A stretch of 64,000 nt of DNA from Gammaproteobacteria bacterium. GTDB lineage: Bacteria > Pseudomonadota > Gammaproteobacteria > Eutrophobiales > Eutrophobiaceae. The notes under the pieces were generated by a model. The model did no database searches. It saw only the letters and a list, made by a program, of their open reading frames with translations, and was not told the DNA's origin. The stretch is from NCBI GenBank assembly GCA_965221695.1, contig OZ244905.1:2880001-2944000 (forward strand). The letters run 5' to 3'. The stretch's first letter is position 1, and each line of letters starts with the position of its first letter. The translations under genes and the position numbers were made by a program. This document shows, in pieces, positions 1 to 64,000 of this stretch.

Positions 1-127
1 AGTGAAACAAGGAGTCGCCCTACGGGCGACACAGCATTTGACTGGACTCCCGCTTTTGCGGGAGTGGTACGGTGGCGGTGTTCCCGGTAGCGCCCCCATC
101 CCATTCCCGCGAAAGCGGGAATCCAGT
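1..127 (+). repeat. Tripartite palindromic repeat (B-C-linker-A), truncated by window start
   Basis: GTCGCCC-TAC-GGGCGAC (14-30), ACTGGACTCCCGC-TTTT-GCGGGAGTGG (41-67), CCATTCCCGC-GAAA-GCGGGAATCCAGT (101-127); same unit as the array at 63036-63722. Confidence 0.93.
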
Positions 128-196
128 CAATCAATATCTTCCTTGTCATAAGATGTATTTTGACTAATATATGCCAGCTATGGAGGTGTCATCGAC

Positions 197-4070: not shown

Positions 4071-4178
4071 AGTGAAAGAGTCGCCCTTCGGGCGACACAG
4101 CATTTGACTGGACTCCCGCTTCTCAGCCTGCCCCTGTATGGCGTTGAGCAGGGGCAGGCTGGGAAGCGGGAATCCAGT
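4071..4178 (+). repeat. Tripartite repeat with nested hairpin insert
   Basis: B hairpin, then C left arm + CAGCCTGCCCCTG-TATGGCGTTGAG-CAGGGGCAGGCTG + A right arm, forming a ~30-bp stem between convergent genes. Confidence 0.88.
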
Positions 4179-10383: not shown

Positions 10384-10424
10384 GAATCCAGTAAAACAAC
10401 GGGTCGCCTTTCAGGCAACACAGT
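10384..10424 (+). repeat. Partial tripartite repeat (end of A plus degenerate B)
   Basis: GAATCCAGTAAAACAACGGGTCGCCTTTCAGGCAACACAGT. Confidence 0.7.
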
Positions 10425-10428
10425 CTGG

Positions 10429-15127: not shown

Positions 15128-15308
15128 CGTAAGCGCCCCCACCCATTCCCCCGGCAAGCTCTCCCTTCCCAGCCTGCCCCTGTATGGCGTTGAGCAGGGG
15201 CGGGAGTGGTTTTGTGGCTGGGCGACACAGTATTCGACTTGCCTCTCGCTTTTGCGGGAGTGGTATGGTCGATGGTGACAAAGTGTTAAACTGGACTCCC
15301 ATCGGGAG
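15128..15308 (+). repeat. Scrambled tripartite-repeat cluster with nested insert
   Basis: Linker + CCATTCCC, AGCCTGCCCCTGTATGGCGTTGAGCAGGGG, GGGCGACACAGTATT, GCGGGAGTGGTATGG, ACTGGACTCCC. Confidence 0.8.
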
Positions 15309-18775: not shown

Positions 18776-18795
18776 AGAAGCGGTGGTTGCCCCGC

Positions 18796-18876
18796 CACCA
18801 TCCCACTCCTGCGAAAGCAGGAGTCCAGTCAAATTCTGTGTCGCCTGAAAGGCGACTCTTTACTCCACTGGATTCC
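18796..18876 (-). repeat. Tripartite repeat, reverse orientation
   Basis: CCACTCCTGC-GAAA-GCAGGAGTCCAGT, GTCGCCT-GAA-AGGCGAC, CACTGGATTCC. Confidence 0.88.
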
Positions 18877-18928
18877 TATTTCACAGCAAAATTATATAGG
18901 TGTCCTGTCTTTGCTTTACAATGTCGTC

Positions 18929-21699: not shown

Positions 21700-21750
21700 T
21701 CCCCCATTGTAACGCTTCTTAAATCAGGACACCCATGTCTTTTTTTTCAA

Positions 21751-21994
21751 GAGTCGCCCTGCGGGCGACAGAGTATTAGACTGGACTCCCGCTTTCGCGG
21801 GAGTGGTACGGTGGTGGTGTTAACGTAAGCGCCCCCCTCCCATTCCCGCGCAAGCGGGAATCCAGTGAGGCAAAGCGTCGCCCGCAGGGTGACACAGTAT
21901 TTGATTGGACTCCCGCTTCCGCGGGAGTGGTTATGCTGGCGGGGTGCGCATGAGTGGTTATGGTGACGGGGTTCGCGGGAGTGGTACGGTGGCG
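21751..21994 (+). repeat. Tripartite repeat cluster (~2 units)
   Basis: B-C-linker-A-B-C followed by two extra GAGTGGT tails. Confidence 0.92.
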
Positions 21995-31974: not shown

Positions 31975-32502
31975 ATGCTGGAATTGATTCTTGCAACCTC
32001 GGCGTTATTTTTGCTGGGAGTGTTGCCGGCTCTGTTGCTCTCCGGAAGAATTGAACTCGACCCGGACGACCGGGAGAAAACCATCTCCGCAATAGATGCG
32101 CTGTTGCCACAGACCCAATGCGGCGACTGCGGCTATCCCGGCTGCCGGCCTTATGCACAAGCTATTGCAGAACAGGATGTGCCGCTGAATTTGTGCCCTC
32201 CCGGCGGCGCCGCAACAGTCAGAAAGCTCGAAAACCTGTTAGGCAAGCCGCATCAGCATAGTGGCCCGCCCGTTCCTGAATCCCTGGTAGCCGTAATCGA
32301 CGAAGAAACCTGCATAGGTTGTGTAAAATGCATCGACGCCTGCCCCGTGGACGCGATCGTAGGCAGCGCAAAACAACTCCACGCGGTTATCCCGGAATAC
32401 TGCACGGGATGCAAACTGTGCCTCCCTCCCTGCCCGGTAGACTGCATCACTATAATAGGACATTCTCCCTCTCCCATTCCCGCGCAAGCGGGAATCCAGT
32501 GA
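31975..32502 (+). CDS. rnfB: Rnf/Rsx complex subunit B
   Basis: [27 protein letters not shown]...CP, CTGC.LC...CP; last residues come from the repeat. Confidence 0.92.
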
Positions 32503-32581
32503 GACAAAGGGTCGCTCTTGGGCGACACAATATTGGATTGGATCCCGCTTTTCAGCCGGCGTTGAGCAGGGCGGGAGTGGT
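32474..32581 (+). repeat. Tripartite repeat overlapping the rnfB 3' end
   Basis: A hairpin encodes PIPAQAGIQ-stop; degenerate B; C carries a shortened GGCGTTGAGCAGGG insert. Confidence 0.88.
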
Positions 32582-33204: not shown

Positions 33205-33313
33205 TATCTTTCTCCGGGCGCTTTGGGGCGAGGCAGAAGGTCTATCAACGGCAACATGTTCAGCAACAGATTTCTGCTTACGGACATTATCTTTCTCCGG
33301 GCGCCTTGGGGCG
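33163..33313. repeat. 83-bp-period tandem duplication of the rnfD/rnfG junction
   Basis: 68-bp near-identical copies at 33163-33230 and 33246-33313 (2 mismatches). Confidence 0.92.
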
Positions 33314-35810: not shown

Positions 35811-35850
35811 CCATCAATTGTATAGGAGATATGAAATGAGTGGAATGAGA

Positions 35851-35902
35851 GAGTCCGGTTTAATACTGTGTCACCCTGCGGGCGACCCTTTATTTCCTTG
35901 GA
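35851..35902 (-). repeat. Tripartite repeat core, reverse orientation
   Basis: Reverse complement reads TCCAAGGAAATAAAGGGTCGCCCGCAGGGTGACACAGTATTAAACCGGACTC. Confidence 0.8.
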
Positions 35903-35949
35903 CGCCCTGCAATAAGAGAACAGGGAGTGAATTATGCTAAAGTAAAGCA

Positions 35950-37335
35950 ATGCAGCATTTCCCGATTTTCCTCGATCTGAACAAGCGCCGATGCCTGGTG
36001 GTGGGCGCCGGTGAAGTGGCTGCGAGGAAGGCGCTACAACTACTCAAAGCAGACGCTGATGTCCTGGTCGTCGCGCCCCGAGCGGAAGATGTAATCCAAG
36101 ACCTTACAGAGCAAGGCAAGGTGCGCCATGAGGCGCGCAAGTTCGAAAGCAAGGACGTATCCGGCTGCGCACTGGTGATTGCGGCGACAGCCGACCGGCA
36201 GGTGAACAGCCAGGTCGCCACCGCCGCGAAGGCTGAGAACATCCCGGTTAATGTGGTCGACGACCCCGCGCTATGCAGTTTTATCATGCCTTCCGTGGTT
36301 GATCGTGACCCGGTGCAAATCGCGGTATCCACGGGCGGCGCGTCACCGGTGCTTGCCAGGCTGCTCCGGACGAAACTGGAAACCCTGGTGCCGGCGAGTT
36401 ACGGGCGGCTGGCAACGGTTGTGCGGGAGTTCCGCGGGCGGGTCAAACAGCGCTTCCCGGAATTTCGCCAGCGCCGCCGGTTCTGGGAAAACATCCTGCA
36501 AGGACCGGTCGTCGAGCTGCTGTTCGCCGGACGGGAACAAGCCGCAATCCGCACGCTGGAGCGCGAACTCGACAGCGCGACACCCGCAGACCTCAAGACC
36601 GGAGAGGTCTACCTGGTCGGTGGCGGACCCGGCGATCCGGACCTGCTGACCTTCCGCGCCCTGCGCCTGATGCAACAGGCCGATGTGGTGCTCTACGACC
36701 GGCTGGTCTCACCGGCGATAGTGGACCTCGCCAGGAAAGAGGCAGAACGCATCTACGTCGGCAAACAGAGCGACAGCCACACGGTGCCCCAGTCCGAACT
36801 GAACAGCCTAATGGTAAAGCTCGCGCAACAGGGCAAGCGTGTGCTGCGCCTGAAGGGTGGCGACCCGTTCATTTTTGGTCGTGGCGGCGAGGAAATCGAG
36901 GAACTGGCAGGATTCGGCATCCCGTTCCAGGTGGTGCCGGGTATCACCGCCGCCGCCGGTTGCGCTTCCTACGCCGGCATCCCGCTGACCCACCGTGATC
37001 TCGCCCACTCCTGCCTGTTCGTCACCGGCCACCTGAAGGACGGCAAGCTGAACTTCAACTGGCCGGCCCTGTTGCAACCGAAACAGACGGTAGCCATCTA
37101 CATGGGAGTGAAGGGGGCGGATGTACTGCAGAAAAACCTGCTCGAACAGGGAATGCGGCCCGACATGCCCGCCGCCATCGTCCAGCAGGGCACCACACCG
37201 GACCAGCAGGTGTACACCGGCTCAGTCTCCACCCTCACAAGCCTGGTCGCGGACAATGAGATCAAACCACCGTCGATGATCATCATCGGCGAGGTAATTC
37301 GACTGCACGAAAAGCTGTCCTGGTTCCACGGGTGA
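35950..37335 (+). CDS. cysG: Siroheme synthase
   Basis: FPIF...[45 protein letters not shown]. Confidence 0.97.
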
Positions 37336-37351
37336 ATGCAGCATGAATACA

Positions 37352-37484
37352 GGTCGCCCAATTTGACTGGACTTCCTGTTTCGAGAGAGTGGTTCGGTCG
37401 CGTCGCTCACAGGAGCGCTCCCCATCCCATTCCCGCGCAAGCGGGAATCCAGTGAGACAACGGTCGCCCGAAGGGCGACACAGT
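37352..37484 (+). repeat. Tripartite repeat (degenerate C, intact A and B)
   Basis: CCATTCCCGC-GCAA-GCGGGAATCCAGT, GTCGCCC-GAA-GGGCGAC. Confidence 0.88.
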
Positions 37485-37509
37485 TGCAATTTGAATCGCT
37501 GTCCCGTAA

Positions 37510-44130: not shown

Positions 44131-47100
44131 ATGTCTAATCACAATGAGACGACGATGCAAGATGCGGCAGCAGGTCTTGACACGACGTACAGTTTCACTC
44201 CGGATGCCAGGGGCTCGTACAGGCCAGGCGTAGACGGCCGGGAGGGCAACAACACGTTCGAAGGAGCGCTTACCCCCGGAGATTCGGACTGGGTAAGTAT
44301 CGAATTGAAGGCCGGAACGGTTTATACCATTACCGTAACAGGCAGAGAGCTCGACAATGATCGGAGCACAGTAACTGCACTGAACGACTCCATTCTCACG
44401 GTCTATGACTCCAAGGGCGTCATGGTCGACATGAACGATGATATCGATGGCGCAGACGGCATGCTCAATTCCGAGTTGGAGATCAATCCGGATGCGGACG
44501 GCGTATTCTACATCGCTGTCAGCGCCTTCTCGGCGAACCCGGGAGCGTCGGCCAGTGGTGGTTATACCGTCACAGTGGCAGAGTCGGAACCGCCTGACCC
44601 GAATATGGGCAAAGACATAACCGGTACCGCGAACGATGACAAGCTGATAGGCACCGAGAAGAATGAAAAGATTAATGGCGGCCCCGATGGTACGGGCACT
44701 CCTGCTACGAATGGCAATGACTCGCTGTATGGCTTGGGCGGTGATGACACACTGCAAGGCGGCACAGGCAACGATCTGCTGGTAGGCGGCCCGGGTTCCG
44801 ATGTGAACCAGGGTGGCGCAGGCGAGGATACCGTGTCCTATGCGACTTCAGCGGAAGGCGTCCGTGTCAGCCTGTTGACCGGGATTGCCCGCGGCGGCGA
44901 CGCCGGTGGCGACTCCTTTGGCGACCCGAATGCGGAAGAGTATACCAACGACATAGAGAACCTCCAGGGTTCCGGGCACGACGACGAGTTGGTCGGCGAT
45001 ACCCTGGCCAACGAAATCTGGGGTCTCGGCGGCGATGACGTAATAAGCGGCAATGTCGGCGATGACACCCTCTCCGGCGGCGCAGGCGACGACGAACTGG
45101 ACGGCGGCGACGGCGACGACACGCTGACTGGCGGCGCAGGCGCTGATGCGCTGACTGGCGGCAAAGGTGATGATACTGCGTCCTACGAAGGTTCTGCGTC
45201 GGGCGTCATGGTGCGCCTGCATTCTTACGTGGCAAGAAATGTCGATCGCGAAGCGGAAAACGATTCCGACGCCGCAGGCGACACCTTCGTCGGCAGGACG
45301 ACTTACAAGCACACGACCACAAATGCTGATGACGAGACCATCAATACGGAATCCACGGCTGCCGATATCGAAAACCTGACCGGTTCAAGCCATGCGGATA
45401 TCCTCGCAGGTGACGGCCGAGAAAATGAGATCAAAGGTGGTGATGGTGACGACACGATCTATGGCGGTCCTGGCGGTGATAAAGATACCAACGATGACGA
45501 CCTGTACGGCGAAGGTGGCAATGATACGCTGTACGGCGGTATCGGCGATGACGAGTTGTTCGGTGGCGACGGCGACGATGTGCTCGTGGGTGGCCCCGGT
45601 CTGGACAAGTATGAGGGCGGTGCCGGCAACGACCTGATTTATGTCGACAAAGCAGACGCCGATGATACTAACGGCAAAGTCCACGGCGGCGAAAACACTG
45701 CTGCGGGTTCACGTCCGGACAGCGATACCGTATCTTTTGAGCGGTTTACCGATGATGATGGTGGAATCACAGGTGTTGCTCTTGGTACTGGCATTTATCT
45801 GCAGATCGAAAATGCTATCGGCACCGACTTTGATGATACGATCACAGGTAGTGACAGTGAGGCAAATACCATAGAAGGTGGTGAAGGTGGCGATACGCTG
45901 AGTGGCGGCGCTGATAGTAATGATCCTGGCGATACTGTGTCTTATGCAAGTTCACCTAAGCGTGTGAGGATCGATTTTAGCGGTGCTACCGATACGGCCG
46001 TTGGCGGTCATGCCACGGGTGATACCCTTAAGAACTTCGAGAACATTATCGGGTCTGCTTATGATGATGTATTGGAAGGTGACGACACCGCCAACGTACT
46101 CACAGGCCTCGCCGGCGACGATGAACTGGCAGGCAATGGCGGTGATGATACGCTGAGTGGTGGCGACGGTGATGATGAGTTGAACGGCGGCTTAGGCGAC
46201 GACACTCTGGAAGGTGGCGCTGGCGCTGACGAACTGGATGGTGGCGCTGCGGAGGACAGTAATGGTAATCCGCTAGCTGCATCTACTAGAAATACACTGT
46301 CCTATGCCAGTTCGGACGCCGGTGTTTCGGTAAATCTGGCGTCTGCCAATGCTGCGGGCGGCCACGCCCAGGGCGACATCATTGCTGTCATTGATGATGT
46401 CGACCACGACGGCGACGAACTGACAGATTCTGACGGTGATAACGACCCCGACGACAGAACGGATACAGCCAGGATTGACGTTGCCACATTCGCCAGTCTC
46501 ACCGGTTCAGCGCACAATGACAGCCTGACCGGCGACTACCGGATGAATGTCCTCAACGGCGGCGATGGTATAGACAGTCTTGACGGCCGCGGCGGCTGGG
46601 ATATGCTCATCGGCGGCGCCGGCGCTGACCGGCTGGATGGTGGCGAGTCTGGCGCAGTGGCTGATGACCCGTCTACCGCTGGTACTGATGAGACAAGAGC
46701 GGAAGATGTCGACTGGGCAGTCTACCGGGATGCCAAAGGCGGCGTTACGGTGAACTTGCAGACCGGCATGGGTACTGCCGGCGACGCCGACGGTGATGAG
46801 CTGACTGATATCGAACTGGTCTGGGGTTCTAGCGACGAGGACAATGGTGATACGTTTATAGCCAGCGACGGCGCTGACCTGATCCACGGCGATCTTGGCA
46901 GCGATACGGTGTCCTACGAGGCCTCGAGCTTGGGAGTTACCGTTTCACTTGTTGGTGCAGCCAGGAGTAATACCTTTGATGATACGGATTGGGATAAGGA
47001 TCCGACAGATGGCGTCATCGCAACAGCTACGCCGACTAATGGACGAGGCCTGCCGGATGACGACTTGGCTCCAGCTCAAGATCTGCTTGACAAGGATGGG

Positions 47101-47742
47101 GCGGTTACAACCGATCCGGATGATAATGTCAACGGCGCAGCCGGCGACAGGCTGGGCGGCATTGAGAATATCACAGGTTCTGATTATGACGACTCCCTGA
47201 CCGGTGACGAGAATGCCAACACCCTCAATGGTGGTGGTGGCGAAGATACGTTGAACGGTGGAGATGGTGACGACACCTTGAATGGTGGCGCTGGTGAGGA
47301 CACCTTGAATGGTGGCGTTGGAGTTGACATCTTGAGTGGCGGAGCCGGTGATGACACCCTGGATGGTGGCGATGGCAATGACACCCTGAACGGTGGCGCT
47401 GGCGACGACAACCTGACGGGCGGAGCCGGTAATGACAGACTGAACGGCGGAACCGGCGATGATGATTTGGAAGGCGGAGCTGGCGATGACACGTATATCA
47501 TCGGCCTTGACAACGGCGACGATTACATCGTTGGTTTTGACAAGGATGCTGCTCTTGAGAGGATTGACCTTTCGGCCTTCGATAGCATTGACTCGTTCGA
47601 CGATCTGACCATCAGGGTACGCGGTGGCAATGCAGTGATCGACCTGTCCGCCCATGGCGGTGATTCGATCACGTTAGTCGGCATTAACCAAGATGATCTT
47701 ACTGACGGCACCTTCGGCGCCAACGACTTCATCATTGTGTAA
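44131..47742 (+). CDS. Large RTX-repeat Ca-binding surface/secreted protein (1203 aa), probable T1SS substrate
   Basis: PPC-like N-terminal domain, dozens of GGxGxDxL repeats, recurring DTVSY..S..GV.V.L...A.GD...IENL.GS modules; C-terminus like that of the 15317 protein. Confidence 0.92.
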   Translation: MSNHNETTMQDAAAGLDTTYSFTPDARGSYRPGVDGREGNNTFEGALTPGDSDWVSIELKAGTVYTITVTGRELDNDRSTVTALNDSILTVYDSKGVMVDMNDDIDGADGMLNSELEINPDADGVFYIAVSAFSANPGASASGGYTVTVAESEPPDPNMGKDITGTANDDKLIGTEKNEKINGGPDGTGTPATNGNDSLYGLGGDDTLQGGTGNDLLVGGPGSDVNQGGAGEDTVSYATSAEGVRVSLLTGIARGGDAGGDSFGDPNAEEYTNDIENLQGSGHDDELVGDTLANEIWGLGGDDVISGNVGDDTLSGGAGDDELDGGDGDDTLTGGAGADALTGGKGDDTASYEGSASGVMVRLHSYVARNVDREAENDSDAAGDTFVGRTTYKHTTTNADDETINTESTAADIENLTGSSHADILAGDGRENEIKGGDGDDTIYGGPGGDKDTNDDDLYGEGGNDTLYGGIGDDELFGGDGDDVLVGGPGLDKYEGGAGNDLIYVDKADADDTNGKVHGGENTAAGSRPDSDTVSFERFTDDDGGITGVALGTGIYLQIENAIGTDFDDTITGSDSEANTIEGGEGGDTLSGGADSNDPGDTVSYASSPKRVRIDFSGATDTAVGGHATGDTLKNFENIIGSAYDDVLEGDDTANVLTGLAGDDELAGNGGDDTLSGGDGDDELNGGLGDDTLEGGAGADELDGGAAEDSNGNPLAASTRNTLSYASSDAGVSVNLASANAAGGHAQGDIIAVIDDVDHDGDELTDSDGDNDPDDRTDTARIDVATFASLTGSAHNDSLTGDYRMNVLNGGDGIDSLDGRGGWDMLIGGAGADRLDGGESGAVADDPSTAGTDETRAEDVDWAVYRDAKGGVTVNLQTGMGTAGDADGDELTDIELVWGSSDEDNGDTFIASDGADLIHGDLGSDTVSYEASSLGVTVSLVGAARSNTFDDTDWDKDPTDGVIATATPTNGRGLPDDDLAPAQDLLDKDGAVTTDPDDNVNGAAGDRLGGIENITGSDYDDSLTGDENANTLNGGGGEDTLNGGDGDDTLNGGAGEDTLNGGVGVDILSGGAGDDTLDGGDGNDTLNGGAGDDNLTGGAGNDRLNGGTGDDDLEGGAGDDTYIIGLDNGDDYIVGFDKDAALERIDLSAFDSIDSFDDLTIRVRGGNAVIDLSAHGGDSITLVGINQDDLTDGTFGANDFIIV

Positions 47743-47845: not shown

Positions 47846-47917
47846 CCCCCTCCGAAAACCTAACCAACCCCCACTCCCTAGAATCTCGGGGTCCCGCCCC
47901 ACAGGTCATTACTCCAC

Positions 47918-47953
47918 CCAGTAAAACTGATGAGTCACCCTTCGGGCGACACA
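47918..47953 (+). repeat. Partial tripartite repeat (B hairpin)
   Basis: CCAGTAAAAC...GAGTCACCC-TTC-GGGCGACACA. Confidence 0.7.
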
Positions 47954-47955
47954 AT

Positions 47956-48048
47956 AAGGAAGATGACAGACGAATCCGCAAGGTGTGCGGTGCGAAGAAT
48001 GTGGTGATTATCTGGCGCTTCTGTCTGAACCTGGCGCGGCGAATGTAG
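47956..48048 (+). pseudogene. ISAs1-family transposase C-terminal remnant
   Basis: Translates KEDDRRIRKVCGAKNVVIIWRFCLNLARRM-stop, resembling the ED..RIR.....N...LRR..LNL motif of ISAs1 transposases. Confidence 0.6.
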
Positions 48049-48075
48049 ATTGCTTCACGCCCGATCCCGGCCAGC

Positions 48076-48504
48076 TTACAAGGTAAACTTATTCAGCGTA
48101 AATATGAATCCGACTATCAAAATCAGTTGGCCCACCATCCACTTAGCCATATCTTCCTTGGCGTTGCTAATGGCAACATCAATCTCCTGCCGAAGCGCCT
48201 CGACATTATGTTCGAGTTTGTCAAGACGCTGCTCAACCTTATTAAAACGTCGATCAATCTCATCAAAACGCTGGTCAAACTCGTCAAGACGCCGGTCAAT
48301 ATTTTCAACATCCACCCTCGTCGCCAGGTTATTCAACAGATCACCTTGTTCTGCCGCCAGCGCTTCTGCTTGCCGTTCGTCAAAACCGCATGCTGTCATC
48401 CGTTTTATGTAGGCATGTTCGTTGAACATGAGTATGTTGTGCTCCGGCGTAAAATAATGTGTTTCTGCCGCTTGTTTTGCTTGTGTTACTGTTGTTTCGT
48501 TCAT
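48076..48504 (-). CDS. DUF1640/CCDC90-like coiled-coil membrane-anchored protein
   Basis: F..HAYIKR...GF...QAEAL head, LAT..D neck, heptad stalk, KW plus C-terminal TM. Confidence 0.75.
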   Translation of the reverse strand: MNETTVTQAKQAAETHYFTPEHNILMFNEHAYIKRMTACGFDERQAEALAAEQGDLLNNLATRVDVENIDRRLDEFDQRFDEIDRRFNKVEQRLDKLEHNVEALRQEIDVAISNAKEDMAKWMVGQLILIVGFIFTLNKFTL

Positions 48505-48868
48505 ACGTAACTCCCATTATTCCGTTCATTAGTAATGTAAATGATCGAGTAACCATTTCTGCTTACTCCTTGGAATTAAGATTAGCAACCAGTAATGAGG
48601 CTGTCAATAAAGATATAGTTGACGCCAGCCTGGGATTGCAAGCTGCTGTTTCAGGTTCAAAGTGATCGCCGATTGCACAGAATTAGATGTCCAACAAAAA
48701 AATTTGCATGATTTTGTGACAAAACTCACGTAAGCCGAGAGTTAATTGTTGACAGTTTTGATTCCCGGATTCATACTTAATGGACACAAAGAAGACGAAA
48801 TAAACGCTTCGTGGAATTTACCGTTTCACCTGATAATCTATCCTGATGAAAATCCAGGGAGGGAAAAA

Positions 48869-49171
48869 ATGAAAAGTATGGCCAAAGAAATATATGATGC
48901 GTTTCTGGAAGCAGGCGTGTCCCAGGAAAGAGCCGAAGATGCTGCCGCTGTTGTGCCGCCAATTGACAACCTTGCAACCAAAACACAACTGGTTGAACTC
49001 CGCCATGACATGACAAAAATGGAATCTGGCATACGAGGAGACATGACAAAAATGGAGGCAGGTTTACGAGAGGATATGTCAAAAATGGAAATGAGATTGA
49101 TCAAGTGGATGGTCTCACTACAGGCGACTACGTTGGCGATGATCATCGCGCTATTCATCAAGTTTCTATAA
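48869..49171 (+). CDS. DUF1640/CCDC90-like coiled-coil membrane-anchored protein
   Basis: IYDAF.EAGV...AE.AA, LATK, 11-residue repeats, LIKW plus C-terminal TM; GGAGG RBS. Confidence 0.75.
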   Translation: MKSMAKEIYDAFLEAGVSQERAEDAAAVVPPIDNLATKTQLVELRHDMTKMESGIRGDMTKMEAGLREDMSKMEMRLIKWMVSLQATTLAMIIALFIKFL

Positions 49172-49363
49172 CCGCAATCGAGCGAAGTCCGCGCCAATCG
49201 TGTTTGCGTCAAGAACCACCCTGTAGTCAAGCTCTGCACAGTTACCTTGATATCCGTGTGCAGCCGCGGCCGCCTTAGTAGCCGGTATCCTGCGCTATCC
49301 GGCTAGTCATGGCTGCCGACGGACTCCATTAGGGCTTAAATCAGAGTTTTTCAGAACCGAAAT

Positions 49364-49391
49364 GAACCTCTGATGTGAAGTCAGAGCTTCC
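49364..49391. repeat. IS5-like inverted-end mini element
   Basis: GAACCTCTGA-tgtgaag-TCAGAGCTTCC. Confidence 0.6.
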
Positions 49392-49593
49392 AGAAATACA
49401 TCAGCGTTATCACACATTAAATGCGGGCATGAAGCGCTTCTCGCCGTGTCATCAATAATCGTCCCCATTTTGTATTGTAACGATAAGTTTCTGTAACTGG
49501 CATCGCGTGATGTCCGTACCAGTAGAGTCATTGACAATTGACATGCCAGAATCCATACTCAATGAACTTCTGACATAATCAGAGATTTACCGA

Positions 49594-51034: not shown

Positions 51035-52783
51035 ATGCAACCAAAGCTTCCAGGAAATACAGGCCCGGCAGAAGAAACCCAATTGCAGGCGGCATTGCGC
51101 CGTTGCCGCAAGGGTTTGCTGGGTGTGACCCTGTTCAGCGCGATGGCCAATATACTGATGCTGGTGGCGCCGGTCTACATGCTGCAGATGTACGACCGGG
51201 TATTGACCAGCGCCAGTTACGAGACCTTGATCGTGCTGACCGTGGTGGCGGTCTTCCTGCTGGCCTGCTTCGGTCTGTTGGATTGGGTGCGCCAGCGGCT
51301 GATGGCGCGTATCGCGCTGTTCCTGAACTACGAGGTCATGGATGACGTGCTGACCGGCGTGTTCCGCGGCAGCCTGCAACGCTTCCGGCAGAGCGCCGAC
51401 CAGCCGGTACGCGATCTCGATACGGTGCGCCAGTTCATATCCAGCCCGCCCGCGCTGTCCTTCTTCGACGCCCCCTGGGCGCCGGTGTTCATCGGCGCCA
51501 TCTTCCTGATCCACCCGTGGCTGGGTTTTTTTGCAATTTTCGCCGCGTTGTTCATCCTGATGCTGGCCTTGCTTACGGAGTGGACCTCCCGCGGGCCGTT
51601 CCGTAATGCATCGGAACACACTGCGGAGTCTCACCGGTTTATTGAAAGCAGCCTGCGCCATGCGGATGTGCTCGAAGCGATGGGCATGTTCGAGGGTTTT
51701 CGCCGCCGCTGGCGTGACAAGCATGACCGCGGCATCGCGTTTCAGGCTCGGGGCGGTTCCAGGGTCAGCATGTTGCTGGCCACTTCCAAGTCCGGCCGCC
51801 AGATCGTTCAGGTAGGCATTCTGGGCCTCGGCGCCTGGTTGGTACTGAAGCAGGCAATCTCGCCGGGCATGATGATCGCCGCTTCCATTATCCTCGGGCG
51901 TGCGCTGGCGCCCATCGAACAAGGCATTTCGGGATGGCGTGGCTTCGTCTCGGCGCGCCAGTCCTGGCGCCGCTTGAACAACCTGCTCGACGCCGCGCCA
52001 CCGGCGCAAGGCGGGGGCGCGACCAGTTTGCCCCGGCCCACCGGCCTGCTGGAGGTGGAGAGCGTGTCCGCGGCGCCGCCGGGGGCCACCAAAGCGACGC
52101 TGCTACGGATAAATTTTACCCTGGAGCCGGGTTCCAGCACGGGGCTGATCGGCCCCAGCGGCAGCGGCAAGAGCACCCTGGCCCGCCTGCTGGTGGGCGT
52201 ATGGACTCCCCAGGCGGGGGCGGTGCGCCTCGATGGCGCAATGATCGCCGACTGGCCGACCGAAAGCCGGTTCCGCCATGTGGGCTACCTGCCCCAGGAG
52301 GTGGAACTGTTCGAGGGCACGGTGGCCGAGAACATTGCTCGCCTGTCCGAACCGGACAACGAGGCAGTGATCGCCGCCGCACAGCAGGCGAACTGCCATG
52401 ACATGATCATGCGCCTGCCGGAGAACTATAACACGCCGATAGCGGCCGGTGGCGCCAACCTGTCAGCCGGCCAACGCCAGCGCGTGGCCTTGGCGCGGGC
52501 CATATACGGCGACCCGGCGCTGATCATCCTGGACGAGCCGGACGCGAACCTCGATGCAGACGGCGAGATGGCGCTCAGGAACGCGTTGCTCGCGTTGTCC
52601 AAGCGCGGCGTAACGCTGCTGATAGTGACCCACAACTTCCGCCTGCTGCAAGTGGTCAGGAATGTGATGGCGCTGAAAGATGGCGTGCTGCTGGAGAACG
52701 GCCCACGGGAAGAAGTCCTGAAACGCTTCATGCGCCCCGCTCCGGCAGTCGCCGGCGCAAAGAAAGCGCAAGCTGGAAACTAA
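51035..52783 (+). CDS. Type I secretion ABC transporter, PrtD family
   Basis: YMLQMYDRVL.S, FFDAPW, GPSGSGKST, LSAGQRQR, ILDEP. Confidence 0.93.
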   Translation: MQPKLPGNTGPAEETQLQAALRRCRKGLLGVTLFSAMANILMLVAPVYMLQMYDRVLTSASYETLIVLTVVAVFLLACFGLLDWVRQRLMARIALFLNYEVMDDVLTGVFRGSLQRFRQSADQPVRDLDTVRQFISSPPALSFFDAPWAPVFIGAIFLIHPWLGFFAIFAALFILMLALLTEWTSRGPFRNASEHTAESHRFIESSLRHADVLEAMGMFEGFRRRWRDKHDRGIAFQARGGSRVSMLLATSKSGRQIVQVGILGLGAWLVLKQAISPGMMIAASIILGRALAPIEQGISGWRGFVSARQSWRRLNNLLDAAPPAQGGGATSLPRPTGLLEVESVSAAPPGATKATLLRINFTLEPGSSTGLIGPSGSGKSTLARLLVGVWTPQAGAVRLDGAMIADWPTESRFRHVGYLPQEVELFEGTVAENIARLSEPDNEAVIAAAQQANCHDMIMRLPENYNTPIAAGGANLSAGQRQRVALARAIYGDPALIILDEPDANLDADGEMALRNALLALSKRGVTLLIVTHNFRLLQVVRNVMALKDGVLLENGPREEVLKRFMRPAPAVAGAKKAQAGN

Positions 52784-52786
52784 TAT

Positions 52787-52875
52787 AAGGGGTCGCCCCT
52801 CGGGCGACACAGAACATGACTGGACTCCCGCTTCCGCGGGAGTGGTACGGTGGTGAAGCTCGCGGGAGTGGTACG
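52787..52875 (+). repeat. Tripartite repeat (B-C) inside the T1SS operon
   Basis: GTCGCCC-CTC-GGGCGAC, ACTGGACTCCCGC-TTCC-GCGGGAGTGG. Confidence 0.88.
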
Positions 52876-54334: not shown

Positions 54335-55776
54335 GTATCGGGAATCCAGTAAGACAAGGGGTCACCCTGCGGGCGACGCGGTATTTGACTGGACTCCCGC
54401 TTTCGCGGGAGTGGTGCGGTGGCGCCGCAGGCGCACTTTATTCCCTTATGCTCGCGCTAAACTTCGCACTGCCCACTGCCGCTGCCGCCGAGAACGCAGT
54501 CACCGACAGTGTAGTCACCAACAGCGCAGTCACCAGCAACGCAGCCGTCGACAGCGCCGCTGCTGACAGCGCAGGCGCCTACACCCTCTCGCAGGCATTC
54601 CTCGACACTTTGGCGCGGGACCCTCAAATACAGGCGGCGGAGAGCCGCGTCGCCGAGGCGCGCGAGCGGATGGAGGAAGTGAACGCCAGTCTGCGTCCCT
54701 CGCTTACCCTGTCCGGCAATACCGGTTATGCCTATAACCGCAACCAGGCTCGCATCACATCGATCTACGAAGGCCACTCGTCCCGGGGCAGGGTGCAGTT
54801 GAATCAAAACCTGTACACCTTTGGCCGTATTGAAGGCCGCCGCCAGCGTGTTGATGCCGAGATCGCCGAAGCGGAATTTGCCCTCGAAGAAGTACGCCAG
54901 GATGTACTGGCGGAGGTTGCCCGCGCCTTTTCCGAACAGTTGTTCCGGGAACGCATCTACCAGAGCCGCCAAGACTTTGAGAAGCTGCTGGGTGAGTTGG
55001 AGGATGCGGCGCGCCGCCGCATCGAACTGGGCACCCTGGACCGCACCGAATTATTTGGCGTGCTGCGCCGTCTGCACCAGGCAAAGGCGCAGCGCATCGA
55101 GGCACATTCCCGTTACCGCGTGGCGCGCGCGCAATTGGCCCGCCTGACGGGTCTGGAACACGACAACCTGGCCCCTGCCTCCCTGGCAAGTCTGGAACTG
55201 GCGGCGCCGACCAGTCTCGACTTCGCGTTGCACCAGGCAGAAAAGCAGTCTCCTGCGTTGATGCAAGCGCGTATGCGCCTGGAGGCTGCCGAGGGTGAGC
55301 TCGCATTCCGCAAGGCCGAACTCTGGCCGACCCTGAGCCTGGAAGTAAACGCCAGCACAGGCAATGTCGGGCAGATCGACACCACTGATGTCGTCGGTGG
55401 AGTCAATATCTCTGTGCCGATGTATGAGGGCGGCGCCAAGCGCTCGCAGTTGCGCGGCGCCAGGCTGGCGGTGGAGACTGCGCGCCGGGAACTGTTTGCG
55501 GTACAGGAACGGGTCGATATTGATGTGCGTTCCAACTGGGACCTGCTTCAAGGTCTGGTTATGTCTCTGCTGGAATTCGAGGCAGCCGTCGCCGACATGG
55601 ATGAAGTAGTGGCTTTGACCGGTAGTAAACTCGACGTAGGCCGCGCCACTTTCGTGCAGCACATCGAAGCCCGGCAAGACGCGCTGGATGTTGAATACGA
55701 ACTACTGAACAGCCACCTTCGCCTGGAAGAAACCCGCATCGAATTGCTGCGCGTCCTGGCGGAACTCAGTCCCTGA
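54331..55776 (+). CDS. TolC-family outer-membrane protein
   Basis: ATGA-coupled to the MFP gene; hydrophobic signal region, two OEP repeats (P.L.L, QNLYTFG, VPMYEGG). Confidence 0.9.
   Translation: MSIGNPVRQGVTLRATRYLTGLPLSREWCGGAAGALYSLMLALNFALPTAAAAENAVTDSVVTNSAVTSNAAVDSAAADSAGAYTLSQAFLDTLARDPQIQAAESRVAEARERMEEVNASLRPSLTLSGNTGYAYNRNQARITSIYEGHSSRGRVQLNQNLYTFGRIEGRRQRVDAEIAEAEFALEEVRQDVLAEVARAFSEQLFRERIYQSRQDFEKLLGELEDAARRRIELGTLDRTELFGVLRRLHQAKAQRIEAHSRYRVARAQLARLTGLEHDNLAPASLASLELAAPTSLDFALHQAEKQSPALMQARMRLEAAEGELAFRKAELWPTLSLEVNASTGNVGQIDTTDVVGGVNISVPMYEGGAKRSQLRGARLAVETARRELFAVQERVDIDVRSNWDLLQGLVMSLLEFEAAVADMDEVVALTGSKLDVGRATFVQHIEARQDALDVEYELLNSHLRLEETRIELLRVLAELSP
54339..54424 (+). 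repeat. Tripartite repeat in frame within the TolC ORF
   Basis: CGGGAATCCAGT...GTCACCC-TGC-GGGCGAC...ACTGGACTCCCGC-TTTC-GCGGGAGTGG with no in-frame stop. Confidence 0.9.
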
Positions 55777-57559: not shown

Positions 57560-57661
57560 AGGTTGCACAGTATCGCATGTTTGACCCGAATTTCAACAAG
57601 ATCAGGGCGCTGCGCATCCCGACGATATGTAATAGTTGGCACAGGCCAGGCTATTCCCCTA

Positions 57662-57734
57662 TACCACTCCCGCAACAGCGGGAGTCCAGTCAAATACTTT
57701 ATCGCCTGAAAGGCGACCCTTTGTTCACTGGATT
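57662..57734 (-). repeat. Tripartite repeat, reverse orientation
   Basis: TACCACTCCCGC-AACA-GCGGGAGTCCAGT, TCGCCT-GAA-AGGCGAC, CACTGGATT. Confidence 0.88.
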
Positions 57735-57803
57735 ACGTAGTTTGCCCCCGCTCAGCGCCACACTTAGTAAAACTAACACAGCAAATAATGCTAGAATCGG
57801 CGT

Positions 57804-59748: not shown

Positions 59749-61686
59749 ATGTCTGAAGTGAAAGCCTATCCGGTCTCTCCGACTGTTGCCGGCGATGCCA
59801 ATATTAACGAAAAACAATACGCCGCGATGTACGACCAGTCCATCAACGATCCGGACGCGTTCTGGGCCGAACAGGCTGAAAAGTTCGTAAGCTGGTCCAG
59901 GAAGTGGGACAAGGTCCAGGACTGGGACTATAACAAGGTGGACATCAAGTGGTTCAGTGGGGCTAAACTGAATGTATCGTACAACTGCCTGGACCGGCAC
60001 CTGGAGACCCGCGGTGATGATGTGGCCATTATCTGGGAGGGCGACGACCCCAGTGTCGATAAAAAGATCACCTACCGGGAACTGCACCGGGAAGTATGCC
60101 GTTTCGCCAACGTTCTGAAGGCCAGGGGCGTCGGCAAGGGTGACCGCGTGTCCATCTACATGCCGATGATCCCGGAGGCGGCCGTGGCGATGCTGGCCTG
60201 CACCCGTATCGGCGCGGTTCACTCGATCGTGTTCGGCGGGTTCTCCCCGGAGGCGCTCAAGGACCGCATCCTGGATTCCGATTGCCGCGTGGTCGTTACC
60301 GCGGACGAAACCGTGCGCGGCGGCCGCACTACACCGCTGAAGGCGAACACCGACAAGGCCCTTGAGCATTGCCCGGATGTGCACAGCGTGATCGTGGTGC
60401 AGCGCTCCGGCGCCGATGTGGACTGGACCGAGGGGCGTGACCTCTGGTACCACGAGCAGATGGAGCAGGCCGCTGACGACTGCCCACCGGAGGAAATGGA
60501 CGCGGAAGACCCGCTGTTTATCCTTTACACCTCCGGTTCCACCGGCAAACCCAAGGGAGTTCTGCACACCACCGGCGGTTACCTGCTGTATGCCGCCCTG
60601 ACCCACAAGTACGTGTTTGATTATCACGACGGCGAGGTCTACTGGTGTACCGCCGATGTGGGCTGGGTAACGGGGCATACCTACATTGTTTACGGACCGC
60701 TGTGCAACGGCGCCATCACCCTGATGTTCGAGGGCGTGCCCACCTATCCTGATGCGGGCCGCTTCTGGCAGGTGGTGGACAAGCACCAGGTCAACATCTT
60801 CTATACCGCGCCGACGGCGTTACGCGCCCTGATGGGGCAGGGCGACGAGTTTGTGAAACGGCACGACCGCGGCAGCCTGCGCATACTCGGCAGTGTCGGC
60901 GAACCGATCAACCCGGAGGCCTGGGAGTGGTACTACCACGTGGTCGGCGACGAGCGCTGTCCGATTGCGGACACCTGGTGGCAGACCGAGACCGGCGGTA
61001 TTCTCATTTCTCCGTACCCGGGCGCCACTGCCCTGAAACCCGGCTCCGCCACCCGGCCCTGTTTCGGTGTGGAGCCATGCCTGGTGGACGACAAGGGTAA
61101 CGAACTGGATGGCGCGACCTCCGGCGCGCTGTGCATCAAACGCTCCTGGCCAGGCCAGATGCGCACTGTGTACGGCGACCACCAGCGCTTTATTGACACC
61201 TACTTCAAGACCTTCCCCGGCATGTATTTCACCGGCGACGGGGCGCGCCGCGACGAAGACGGCTATTACTGGATCACCGGGCGCGTGGACGACGTGATCA
61301 ATGTCTCCGGTCACCGCATGGGCACCGCCGAAGTGGAAAGCGCGCTGGTGCTGCATGATGCGGTTGCCGAGGCCGCCGTGGTAGGCTTCCCCCATGATAT
61401 CAAGGGGCAGGGCATCTATGCCTACGTGACCCTGATGGGCGGGGTCGAATCTTCCCCGGAACTGCGCCGGGAGCTGGTTTTACATGTACGCAAGGAGATC
61501 GGCCCCATCGCCAGCCCGGATGTGGTCCAGTGGGCGCCGGGCTTGCCCAAGACCCGTTCCGGCAAGATCATGCGTCGCATCCTGCGCAAAATCGCCGCCA
61601 ATGAACTGGATAACCTGGGCGACACCAGCACCCTGGCAGACCCCGCAGTCGTCGATGACTTGATTGAGAACCGGGAAGTGAAATAA
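59749..61686 (+). CDS. acs: Acetyl-CoA synthetase
   Basis: [38 protein letters not shown]. Confidence 0.98.
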
Positions 61687-61832
61687 AGGGTCGCCCTCCG
61701 GGCGATGCAGAATTAGACTGGACTCCCGCTTCCGCGGGAGTGGTATGGTGGCGGGTTCACGGGAGCGCCCCCAACCCATTCCCGCGAAAGCGGGAATCCA
61801 GTGAAATACTATGTCGTCCGGAGGACGACACA
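61672..61832 (+). repeat. Tripartite repeat (B-C-linker-A-B)
   Basis: Starts at the acs stop; the second B is GTCGTCC-GGA-GGACGAC (compensatory pair). Confidence 0.9.
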
Positions 61833-61847
61833 TTATACTTCCAGTAA

Positions 61848-63032
61848 ATGATCACTGAAAACATCGCCGAATTGAAAGAGTATTTCAACCTCTGGTTGGA
61901 AGCCGGCGAACAGGCGTATGCGGAAATCGCGTTTACTGACGAGTACGCCCGCAATTTTGCCGGTCTGGTGAATGCCTTCCTGGCCATGCGCGCTGAGTTG
62001 GATGCGCAGCCTGACGGGGTCGCCCTGCCGGGGCTTCCCGGCTTTGCCGGCTTGCCCGGCGCGACGCCCGTTGAAGTCGGACCGTCAGCCAGGGACGAGG
62101 CGCACCGGGAGGACAAGGTTCGCCTATACCGTTACCGGGCGTTAGTCGATGAACCCCATGCCGTCCCGGTGCTGATCGTCTACGCCCTGGTCAACAGGCC
62201 ATATATCATGGACTTGCAGGAAGGGCGTTCCTTGGTACAGGGGCTGCTCAAGGCCGGCCTGGACGTTTACCTGCTCGACTGGGGTTGTCCCGACGATGGT
62301 GATACGGGCCTAACCCTGGATGATTACATCAACCGCTACCTGGGCAACGCGGTGGATATCATCCGGCAGCGCCACAGCGCGGAACGCATCAACCTGCTGG
62401 GTGTGTGCCAGGGTGGTACCTTCTGCCTTTGTTATACCGCCTTGCATCAGGATAAGGTCGCCAACCTGGTGACCAGCGTGACGCCGGTGGACTTTCACAC
62501 CCCGCGCGACCTGCTCAGCCACCTGGTGCGGCACGTGGACATGGACCTGGCCGTAGATACGCTGGGCAATATACCCGGCGAGTTCCTGAACTGGTTGTTC
62601 CTGATGTTGAAACCGTACAAGCTGACCGGGAAGAAGTACCTGGATGCGTTGGAGCTACTGCATGACAAGGACCGGTTCGCTACCTTCATGCGCATGGAAA
62701 AATGGATCTTCGACAGTCCGGACCAGGCCGGCGCCGCCTGCCGCCAATTTGCGAGGGATTTCTACCAGGGCAACAAGCTGGTCAAGGGCGAGGTCGAAAT
62801 CGGCGGCAAACGGATAAACCTGGAGTCGATCACCGTCCCGGTCCTGAACATTTTCGCCACCAACGACCACCTGGTCCCGGTCGATGCGTCAAAAGCGCTG
62901 GCCGGCTGCATCAGCAGCAAGGATTACACCGAACTGGAGCTTCCCGGCGGCCACATCGGCATCTACGTAGGCGCCGGCGCCAAAGACACCTTACCCGTCG
63001 CCATCAACAACTGGCTCAGGCAACGGCCCTGA
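61848..63032 (+). CDS. phaC: Class III PHA synthase PhaC with N-terminal PhaE-like segment
   Basis: YALVNRPY..DLQ, GVCQGG catalytic Cys box, RMEKWIFDSPDQAG, DHLVP, GGHIG. Confidence 0.9.
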   Translation: MITENIAELKEYFNLWLEAGEQAYAEIAFTDEYARNFAGLVNAFLAMRAELDAQPDGVALPGLPGFAGLPGATPVEVGPSARDEAHREDKVRLYRYRALVDEPHAVPVLIVYALVNRPYIMDLQEGRSLVQGLLKAGLDVYLLDWGCPDDGDTGLTLDDYINRYLGNAVDIIRQRHSAERINLLGVCQGGTFCLCYTALHQDKVANLVTSVTPVDFHTPRDLLSHLVRHVDMDLAVDTLGNIPGEFLNWLFLMLKPYKLTGKKYLDALELLHDKDRFATFMRMEKWIFDSPDQAGAACRQFARDFYQGNKLVKGEVEIGGKRINLESITVPVLNIFATNDHLVPVDASKALAGCISSKDYTELELPGGHIGIYVGAGAKDTLPVAINNWLRQRP

Positions 63033-63035
63033 CAA

Positions 63036-63722
63036 TACCATTCCCGTGCAAACGGGAATCCAGTGAAACAAAGGGTCGCCCTTTGGGCGACACAGTATTC
63101 TACTGGACTCCCACTTTCGTGGGAGTGGTATGGTGGCGGGGTTAGCGGTAGCGCCCCGCATCCCATTCCCGTGGAAACGGGAATCCAGTGGGACAACGAG
63201 TCGCCCTTCGGGCGACACAGTATCTGACTGGACTCCCGCTTCCGCGGGAGTGGTACGGTGGCTGGGTTTACGGAAGCGCCCCCCATCCCATTCCCGTGGA
63301 AACGGGAATCCAGTGAGACAACGAGTCGCCCTTTGGGCGACACAGTATCTGACTGGACTCCTGCTTTCGCAGGAGTGGTACGGTGGCGGTGTTCACGCAA
63401 GCGCCCCCATCCCATTCCCGTGGAAACGGGAATCCAGTGAAACAAGGGGTCGCCCTTTGGGCGACACAGTATTCTACTGGACTCCCACTTTCGTGGGAGT
63501 GGTATGGTGGCAGTGTTCACGGGAGTGCTCCCCACCCCATTCCCGTGGAAACGGGAATCCAGTGAGACAACGAGTCGCCCTTTGGGCGACACAGTATCTG
63601 ACTGGACTCCTGCTTTCGCAGGAGTGGTACGGTGGCGGTGTTCACGCAAGCGCCCCCATCCCATTCCCGTGGAAACGGGAATCCAGTGGGACAAGGGGTC
63701 GCCCTTCGGGCGACACTGTATT
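63036..63722 (+). repeat. Tandem array of 5.5 copies of the 124-125-bp tripartite palindromic unit
   Basis: Unit starts (CCATTCCC) at 63038, 63163, 63288, 63412, 63537, 63661. Confidence 0.97.
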
Positions 63723-63726
63723 TGAT

Positions 63727-64000
63727 TTAAAGGATCTCCTCATATAAATCTCTCCATGCTGGATTTTGTTTTTCAATAAGTTCCGTCTTCCATTTTCTGT
63801 TCCATTTTTTTATTTGCTTCTCTCGCATGAGAGCAGCGTCCCTATCACCATGTACTTCATAGTAAACCAGGCGATGTACGCTATATTTTTTGGTAAATCC
63901 ATCCACCACCTTATTTTTATGTTCCCACACGCGTGCAGGTAAATCGTTAGTGACGCCTGTATAAAGCGTGCCGTTCTGTTTGTTTGCCATGATATAAACT
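63727..64000 (-). CDS. Small GIY-YIG nuclease (UPF0213/YhbQ-like); 5' end outside window
   Basis: VYIMANKQNGTLYTGVT.DL..RVWEH, FTKKY, LVYYE, A..REKQIK.W.R.WK..LIE..NP.W.DL; frame open to the window edge. Confidence 0.92.
   Translation of the reverse strand, partial: VYIMANKQNGTLYTGVTNDLPARVWEHKNKVVDGFTKKYSVHRLVYYEVHGDRDAALMREKQIKKWNRKWKTELIEKQNPAWRDLYEEIL

Follow-up and report, generated by a model that had tools for sequence, protein, structure and literature searches.

We have examined a 64,000-nucleotide stretch of genome G000 (the window; G000:C1:2880001-2944000) in which a small gene, here termed ssn, abuts a tandem array of hairpin-bearing repeats. The ssn product is probably an Ssn-family GIY-YIG endonuclease of single-stranded DNA (ssDNA), and the repeat units mosaics arranged around two inverted recognition hairpins resembling the NTS and SRM motifs of that family. 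Placement in the family is shown by homology and genomic context, the protein itself being a predicted one. A sequence-only reading of this DNA had proposed that the nuclease and an ATTCCC-N8-GGGAAT repeat are functional partners, and had likened them to RAYT transposases and their REP/BIME repeats. The pairing of nuclease and hairpin is real but already published, and the paper concerned (PMC11893778) also draws the RAYT/REP/BIME analogy in its Discussion; the locus therefore adds an example and not a new kind. The G000 genome comprises 3,539,060 bp in one contig, with a GC content of 55% and a completeness of 96.85%.

Site-specific ssDNA nucleases of the Ssn type and their NTS/SRM hairpins were described by Chenal et al. 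(Nat Commun 2025;16:2388, PMC11893778). NTS is defined there as CGTCATTCCCGCGMAVGCGGGAATCYRG. SsnA of Neisseria meningitidis, a 94-aa GIY-YIG protein, binds NTS solely as ssDNA and cuts a few nucleotides upstream, the C after the palindrome mattering most for binding and the three nucleotides before it mattering most for cutting, and cutting was abolished by mutation of Y6, Y17 and E64. Cutting beside the enzyme's own motif was found for those of N. meningitidis, N. elongata, N. wadsworthii and Wolbachia, and DNA carrying NTS transforms N. meningitidis about five-fold less efficiently when the enzyme is present. SRM is reported in the flanks of 71% of homologues, the family being delimited by a blastp match to N. 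meningitidis SsnA (CAX49033.1) with E < 1e-10 and at least 75% cover, and by cd10448 as the top CDD match. The Discussion likens the NTS-ssnA-NTS arrangement to insertion sequences as well as to RAYT/REP/BIME, and domestication and repeat expansion are put forward there as a hypothesis. Supplementary Data 5 of the paper holds genome names only and no motif variants. Searches of the literature from 2024 and on GIY-YIG proteins with intergenic hairpin repeats returned no further Ssn work among the matches listed.

The ssn gene lies on the minus strand and encodes 97 aa, extending from an ATG at 64018-64020, 20 bp beyond the window end, to a stop codon at 63727-63729. Within the window the open reading frame (ORF) is open at the edge (63727..63990, minus strand), and the whole genome extends it to 64020. 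The stop codon is separated from the array end by 1 nt, and not by about 5 bp as had first been read. The product matches the Pfam GIY-YIG domain (PF01541, E 2.4e-15, 57 bits against a cut-off of 22.6) over residues 1-71 of the 90 visible in the window and contains no other domain, as a single-domain protein of <150 aa. The intact motifs ascribed to this small gene by the sequence-only reading are indeed present, with Y9, Y20, R30, H34, E67 and N86 invariant in an alignment of five homologues from the genus and a neighbouring family, and the spacing of Y9, Y20 and E67 (11 and 47 residues) equals that of Y6, Y17 and E64 in N. meningitidis SsnA, a correspondence judged by spacing only. A search of NCBIfam with the ssn product returned nothing above cut-off, and the only meaningful match in a PDB sequence search was 1ZG2, a UPF0213 GIY-YIG protein (E 9e-4); WD40 matches in the PDB search were discarded as sums of weak repeats, every stretch having E > 4. 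No second ssn copy was found in the G000 genome by tblastn, and ssn has a GC content of 39.8%, compared with the genome-wide value given above. ComEC and DprA are encoded in the genome, but are near-universal and little informative.

The array consists of 5.5 copies of a 124-125-bp unit, as first read, and this was confirmed by Tandem Repeats Finder (period 125, 88% matches, score 1044) and by a list of the units, which measure 125, 125, 124, 125 and 124 bp and are followed by a final 65-bp half unit made of hairpins A and B. Units 3 and 5 are 100% identical, producing a 249-bp higher-order period that is also detected (2.7 copies, 91% matches). Each unit is an inverted pair of two related oriented hairpins, A and C, around a third hairpin, B, plus a linker. 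Hairpin A is CCC-ATTCCCGTGGAAACGGGAAT-CCAGT and NTS-like (type 1), hairpin B is GTCGCCC-N3-GGGCGAC, and hairpin C, read on the other strand, is ACC-ACTCCCGCGRAAGCGGGAGT-CCAGT, NTS-like on the minus strand (type 2). Read in the orientation of the gene, the array end presents the ssn stop, 12 nt, hairpin B, 14 nt and a reverse-oriented NTS-like hairpin. The anatomy of A, B, C and linker thus stands as originally described, with one correction as to the fold. The minimum-energy ssDNA fold of one unit is a single long A:C stem with B at its tip (-37 kcal/mol, z -4.5, equalled by none of 200 shuffles), so that three separate hairpins are only one of two possible forms. Pairing within the hairpin core is maintained by compensatory change: among 206 copies, core pair 2/19 is T-A in 104, C-G in 100 and unpaired in 2, and pair 8/13 is C-G in 133, T-A in 65 and other in 8. 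The array also yields long spurious ORFs with repeating peptides on both strands (window 62963-63747; 243 aa and 205 aa), which gene callers could annotate as hypothetical proteins.

In G000 the oriented motif AYTCCC-N8-GGGART-CYRG occurs 186 times (96 on the plus and 90 on the minus strand), compared with 0.1 in 10 dinucleotide shuffles. The copies are of two stem types, ATTCCC/GGGAAT in 94 and ACTCCC/GGGAGT in 92. In both, the 3' flank is C-C-A-G-T in at least 180 of the 186, and the 5' flank is C-R-T-M-C-C, replacing the canonical C-G-T-C; the commonest 5' hexamers are CGTACC (47), CATCCC (23), CATACC (15) and CGTCCC (7). The 5' flank reads as the usual GTC shifted by 2 nt through CC and then partly degraded, to judge by these hexamers. 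The CC-type hairpins retain the dRS3 core, the 3' C and CAG, on which binding depends in N. meningitidis (PMC11893778). With a 5' flank that looks as though 2 nt had been added before the stem, the G000 hairpins fail both the published NTS consensus and the SRM search pattern. Given this flank, the cut geometry would be expected to be shifted, or else binding not to be followed by efficient cutting.

Relatives of ssn are widespread, and their surroundings support the pairing. In a scan of genome_contigs, 585 of 600 candidate stretches encode relatives, of which the best 80 (56-70% identity) were kept; these span Proteobacteria, Chloroflexota, Planctomycetota, Patescibacteria and others, and no Neisseria locus is among them. 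Enrichment of repeats beside homologues, a consequence of the partnership as first proposed, is observed: the published SRM pattern is found within 500 bp in 66 of the best 80, on both sides in 44 of 80, and at 1 of 80 in a control with flanks reversed but not complemented. The SRM closest to the gene on its upstream side has the gene's own orientation in 35 of 54 loci, and the closest one downstream has the opposite orientation in 38 of 56. At the G000 ssn the downstream hairpin is likewise reversed, as in most homologues.

The co-variation of nuclease and repeat expected from the same proposal is also observed within the genus. The sample comprises 23 genomes, five of which carry ssn by protein search; being kin, they are not independent, and no statistic is attached to the comparison. 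Identity to the G000 ssn product is 100% in G008, 70% in G003, and 61% in both G018 and G014. Exact patterns were counted on both strands, the CC-ACTCCC type and two private flank types being searched only in the five ssn-bearing genomes. Hairpins of the type CCC-ATTCCC..GGGAAT-CCAG number 59 in G000, 114 in G008, 1 in G003 and 0 in G014 and G018, and those of the type CC-ACTCCC..GGGAGT-CCAG number 85, 186, 1, 4 (G014) and 0 (G018). The canonical GTC-ATTCCC..GGGAAT-CCAG is absent from G000 and G008, with 37 copies in G003, 27 in G014 and 286 in G018. G003 and G014 each possess a flank type of their own, in 11 and 23 copies respectively, with 0 in each of the other four ssn-bearing genomes. Besides the ssn-bearing genomes, the CCC-ATTCCC type occurs in G007 (5) and G015 (1) and in none of the other 18 genomes, a total of 7 copies over the 21 genomes other than G000 and G008. 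Thus, every ssn allele goes with a hairpin variant that is private to the genome concerned, G000 and G008 sharing one.

In G018, exact copies of the Neisseria NTS consensus lie both upstream and downstream of ssn, 6 of them within 3.3 kb, and the downstream order of ssn, hairpin B and reverse NTS is the order at the G000 ssn. In G014, G003 and G023, CGTC-stem-CCAG hairpins with other stems are located beside the gene. Within about 60 kb of the G014 ssn (G014:C1:3620689-3682162) lie 17 of the 23 copies of the G014 type, three of them spaced 36 bp apart at 3631682-3631780. This stretch around the gene may be a recently arrived island. The canonical NTS is also present in 13 of the 18 congeners that lack ssn (G007 69, G034 49, G002 44, G031 42, G011 31, G004 17, and others); G034, G004 and G005, all among these 13, are single-contig genomes, and the 49 canonical sites of G034 fall at 44 loci.

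Dispersal of the repeat in G000 was followed with an nhmmer profile built from five full units (E up to 1e-3, both strands). Genome-wide, 354 matches merge into 159 loci that cover 19,937 bp, and the dRS3-type core gives 200 strand matches against 0.6 expected from shuffles. Within the window, 23 AYTCCC-N8-GGGART cores are found against 0.03 expected; by nhmmer there are 12 loci besides the array plus one at the window start, a smaller number than the roughly 17 other loci of the sequence-only reading. The 100 kb around ssn contain 14 repeat loci compared with a genome mean of 4.5, a value reached by only 1.5% of windows, and ssn is the centre of one of the top-scoring 200-kb windows of G000 for repeat density. 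The claim that the longest array is the one at the nuclease is borne out in G000 (696 bp, followed by 503, 468, 371 and 353 bp) but fails in G008, where the ssn-side array has 9.5 units and another, at C4:40335-43100, about 22. The absence of a RAYT, initially noted for the DNA in view, extends to the whole G000 genome: RAYT-type Y1 (HUH) transposases (PF01797) gave 0 matches, in a search whose control matched 6 of 14 reference genomes, and IS110 (PF01548) likewise gave 0 among 9 candidates scored. In the Rfam search of window positions 60000-64000, 6 weak matches were obtained, none at gathering score, the best having 32 bits against a threshold of 66.

Repeat turnover was followed by aligning 46 kb of G000 to G008, which gave 16 colinear blocks and 15 gaps, four of which were examined closely. 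Two of the four are one-unit differences, +125 bp in G008 at about window 37940 and +120 bp in G000 at 61720, and at both the shorter genome has a solo hairpin B where the longer has two, with hairpin, linker and hairpin between them. Both differences are indels between direct hairpin-B copies, such as recombination or slippage produces. The remaining two (150 bp only in G008 and 68 bp only in G000) have 3-nt edge microhomologies, too short to interpret, and no clear target-site duplication is observed at the four gaps. The ssn-side arrays of G000 and G008 begin and end at the same junctions, but unit identity is higher inside each genome (100%, 99%, 98%) than between the two (92% or less), indicating that the two arrays have been remodelled independently. 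In an otherwise colinear region, G008:C1:403030-414379 measures about 11.3 kb compared with 1.6 kb in G000 (window 47870-49467).

Comparison with the ssn-less G034 was made at the 40 of its 44 NTS loci that were fetched, 24 of which have both flanks colinear within 1 kb in G000, the other 16 being dropped. At 22 of these 24 orthologous sites G000 has no NTS-like hairpin and at 2 it has a CC-type hairpin, suggesting that the two repeat populations arose largely independently. At one further site, window 18789, the hairpins are clearly orthologous and have the rare stem CCTGCG..CAGG in common, preceded by CCCGTC in G034 but by CATCCC in G000 and G008. Conversion of canonical to CC-type hairpins mostly in place was considered and rejected, this being one clear case against the 22 of 24 sites that lack a hairpin in G000. 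Thus, turnover dominates, though in-place flank change also happens. A 3.3-kb segment is inverted with respect to G034, with repeat loci 32471-32580 and 35843-35907 at its two breakpoints. Intergenic sequence of G034 is about 85% identical to that of G000 and is too diverged to fix element ends at insertion junctions.

The gene and array occupy a slot framed by phaC and a convergent gene beyond 64035 that encodes an NAD-dependent epimerase (PF01370, E 2.3e-40); the epimerase gene is on the same strand as ssn, and its stop lies 14 nt from the ssn ATG. This pair is conserved in the genus while the spacer varies: it measures 17 bp in G034, 36 bp in G004 and 91-145 bp in G031, G002, G013 and G018, that of G018 containing one NTS-B-NTS element. 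Spacers of 263-284 bp, occupied by NTS mosaics or by a GGACACCCAT repeat of a different kind, are those of G001, G014, G032 and G003, and that of G007 has 403 bp. In G033 and G015 (about 1140-1200 bp) the spacer contains neither repeats nor ssn but a 303-aa ORF, and it reaches 1026 bp in G000 and >1500 bp in G008. The gene and array are thus an insertion in a slot that is empty in the congener G034 and that has the character of a variable cassette site. Another repeat family, based on AATTTGGGACACCCATAAATT and unrelated to the first, is present, often as inverted pairs, in the spacers of G014, G001, G032, G013 and G033, and its copies also adjoin Ssn-type repeats in the window at about 21720 and 35800. 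A 17-nt stretch upstream of ssn, compared with the G018 spacer as a candidate decayed NTS hairpin, was matched by 96 of 1000 shuffles and was rejected.

The gene itself has the behaviour of a cassette that moves horizontally. Throughout the genus, ssn genes have a GC content of 0.39-0.43 within loci of 0.53-0.59, and they are located at differing loci in different congeners. Between G000 and G008 the gene is identical at 297 of 297 nt, inside a 338-nt mismatch-free tract (window 63489-64035; L002 1489-1826). The flanks of this tract differ by 3-9%, with 15 mismatches in the next 500 nt on the right and 18 in the last 200 nt of the array, and the probability of a clean 338-nt tract at 3% divergence is about 3e-5. 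A gene-sized exchange of ssn after the split of G000 and G008 would be the simplest reading.

By homology with the four assayed Ssn enzymes, the ssn protein would bind the folded hairpin together with the C just 3' of it. Binding would be confined to single-stranded DNA, whether incoming transforming, conjugative or rolling-circle DNA or intermediates of replication or recombination, and a cut a few nucleotides 5' of the hairpin would follow. The mosaic repeats would present recognition hairpins on both strands, type 1 on one and type 2 on the other, and the arrays would grow and shrink by recombination between unit-spaced repeats. We infer the activity of the enzyme, its in vivo role and the use of CC-flanked hairpins as substrate of the G000 allele, the last from their exclusive co-occurrence with the allele, the binding determinants that they keep and the shared order of gene, hairpin B and hairpin.

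A number of observations weigh against this assignment. The G000 hairpins lack the 5' GTC, which comprises the three nucleotides most affecting cutting in N. meningitidis SsnA (PMC11893778). No copy of the NTS consensus is present in G000, nor any of GTCATTCCC-N8-GGGAATCCAG in either G000 or G008. The published SRM pattern (HGTCWY..RNCYNB) is not enriched in G000 (24 against a mean of 21.6 and a maximum of 30 in 10 dinucleotide shuffles) and has 0 matches in the 3.3 kb around ssn, where a variant hairpin on one side is found instead. At the 80 homologue loci, 199 of the 216 perfect hairpins that are followed by CCRG on the 3' side have GTC next to the stem, and the CC-type flank occurs at none of the 80. 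The flanking repeat looked for upstream of the gene, past 64000, is absent, the ssn ATG being only 14 nt from the epimerase stop, and with hairpins only on the 3' side of ssn the usual NTS-ssn-NTS layout is incomplete. Finally, the CC-type repeats are common to G000 and G008 and so may predate the present ssn copy. The missing GTC, the lack of SRM enrichment and the bare upstream side would also be expected if a mobile ssn cassette had merely landed in a slot with an unrelated resident mosaic repeat, the CC-flanked hairpins not being its substrate, and the slot is indeed a hot spot, having received NTS mosaics, the GGACACCCAT repeat family and the 303-aa ORF, while ssn is an island of identity between G000 and G008. 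We nevertheless regard such a chance neighbourhood as distinctly improbable, since CCC-ATTCCC hairpins number 59 and 114 in the two genomes that share the allele against 7 in the other 21, the dRS3 core, 3' C and CAG that govern binding in N. meningitidis (PMC11893778) are kept, the order of gene, hairpin B and reverse hairpin equals that of G018, and the downstream hairpin is oriented as in 38 of 56 homologues. An array acting mainly at the level of RNA or transcription, as terminator, insulator or small-RNA source, with the nuclease irrelevant, would fit its position between convergent genes, with hairpin A 5 nt after the phaC stop and B 12 nt after the ssn stop, as well as the stems kept by compensatory change. 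This is very improbable, since no Rfam family reaches gathering score in 60000-64000, no T-run follows the hairpins, termination would not need five and a half copies, and the same hairpins are documented ssDNA targets of the Ssn family (PMC11893778).

The assignment to the Ssn family leaves room for a more active role of the enzyme, in which it would, like a RAYT, drive amplification and spread of the repeat. The sequence-only reading had proposed that extruded hairpins are nicked or resolved to this end; cuts in extruded or single-stranded hairpins would start copy-and-paste or recombination events, the long array beside ssn being a by-product of high local activity. This hypothesis, also raised in the Discussion of PMC11893778, seems to us rather unlikely. 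It would account for hairpin variants private to the genome with the matching ssn allele, for the largest counts being those of ssn-bearing genomes (G018, G008 and G000), for the peak of repeat density around ssn in G000 and G014, and for the 22 of 24 orthologous G034 sites without a hairpin in G000, and no RAYT or IS110 gene was found in G000 to take the part. However, repeats are kept without the gene in 13 of 18 ssn-less congeners, an exact gain or loss of one unit between direct hairpin-B copies accounts for two of the four G000/G008 differences inspected, no clear target-site duplication is seen but only 3-nt microhomologies at the other two, and the greater likeness of units within than between genomes is what unequal exchange predicts. 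Enzymes with the GIY-YIG fold are known to cleave but are not known to transpose or to transfer strands. A related and equally doubtful idea is that of an Ssn protein with shifted specificity, accepting a 2-nt CC spacer between G-T-M and the stem, which itself amplifies and homogenises, lineage by lineage, the variant that it recognises and would thus be a GIY-YIG analogue of the RAYTs; this would explain both the private variants of the four alleles and the density peak around ssn.

With the assignment to the Ssn family as the preferred reading, the locus can be set beside the systems that it most resembles. Like the published Ssn/NTS system (PMC11893778), G000 has a single-domain GIY-YIG protein of about 95 aa with equal Tyr/Tyr/Glu spacing, whose low-GC gene, found at differing loci in congeners, lies among hundreds of dispersed, clustered, intergenic hairpins of the ATTCCC-N8-GGGAAT type followed by C-C-A-G, and whose closest homologues (66 of the best 80) are flanked by SRM. 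It differs from the system as described there in the 5' flank, C-R-T-M-CC instead of C-G-T-C, in two co-varying stem types inverted around a third hairpin, in a 125-bp mosaic forming tandem arrays of up to 5.5 units (G000) or about 22 (G008), and in hairpins on one side of ssn only, with the G000 enzyme known here from its sequence. The dispersed intergenic palindromes, often inverted doublets folding into one long hairpin, the mosaics and the single-copy nuclease gene flanked by its own repeats recall REP/REPIN/BIME elements and their RAYTs, which are also brought up in the Discussion of that paper. In contrast to those IS200/IS605-like Y1 HUH enzymes, the partner in G000 has a GIY-YIG fold and the genome encodes no Y1 transposase. 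Neisseria dRS3 repeats occur in intergenic mosaic elements (NIMEs), and dRS3 is the target of IS110-type phage integrases. The G000 repeats share with these the alternation of the core with conserved segments of 50-150 bp and the variable content between conserved genes, but belong to another lineage, have another 5' flank and are accompanied by no IS110 family gene found in G000. The 20-bp core, ATTCCC-N8-GGGAAT, is identical to the dRS3 definition quoted in PMC11893778.

The locus constitutes a natural specificity variant, in which the NTS binding determinants are kept while the 5' nucleotides that govern cutting are replaced, and provides a pair of allele and site, with probably shifted cut geometry, ready for enzymology. 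That the published search pattern misses the G000 hairpins implies that the figure of 71% for SRM association is an underestimate. With four distinct alleles spread over five genomes and each matched by a hairpin variant of its own, and with 18 genomes that lack the gene, this one genus is a compact natural experiment on whether the repeats are spread by Ssn enzymes, a question left open in PMC11893778. The repeats also shape the genome, two of them marking inversion breakpoints and the array shifting in length by whole units between sister genomes. Positions of the individual features are collected in Table 1.

Table 1. Window positions of ssn, the array, the dispersed repeat copies and phaC.
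Feature	Position	Strand	Evidence or remark
ssn, single-domain GIY-YIG nuclease gene	63727..64000 within window	-	ORF, Pfam PF01541, invariant residues
Tandem array, 5.5 units of 124/125 bp	63038..63725	+	Tandem Repeats Finder, unit list; unit starts 63038, 63163, 63288, 63412, 63537, 63661
Terminal half unit (A then B) abutting ssn stop	63661..63725	+	Same order downstream of G018 ssn
Dispersed copy (B, C, linker, A, B'), between acetyl-CoA synthetase gene and phaC	61669..61839		nhmmer; G008 site is a solo hairpin B
Dispersed partial copy	57657..57736		nhmmer, core count
Dispersed copy	54337..54425		nhmmer, core count
Dispersed copy	52767..52871		nhmmer, core count
Dispersed copy	37334..37496		nhmmer; orthologous G034 site empty (13 bp vs 197 bp)
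Partial copy (hairpin B + flank)	35843..35907		Absent from G008; one breakpoint of inversion vs G034
Dispersed copy	32471..32580		Other breakpoint of inversion vs G034; G008 has one extra unit
Copy of about 1.5 units	21749..21955		nhmmer, core count
Dispersed copy	18789..18883		nhmmer; hairpin orthologous to GTC-flanked G034 hairpin
Partial copy	15219..15271		nhmmer
Partial copy	10384..10426		nhmmer
Partial copy	4072..4122		nhmmer
Copy across window start (genome 2879949-2880133)	1..133		Cores at 46-65 and 103-122
PHA-synthase-like gene (phaC), context outside the system	61848..63032	+	Stop 5 nt before array

Other repetitive sequence in the window includes an 83-bp tandem repeat at 33163-33336 (2.1 copies, 91% matches). 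Runs of 27-bp period rich in GGC/GAC codons are located at 15746-16579, 45058-45174 and 47219-47462, as given by the tandem-repeat table only, and resemble the glycine/aspartate nonapeptide repeats of RTX-like proteins.

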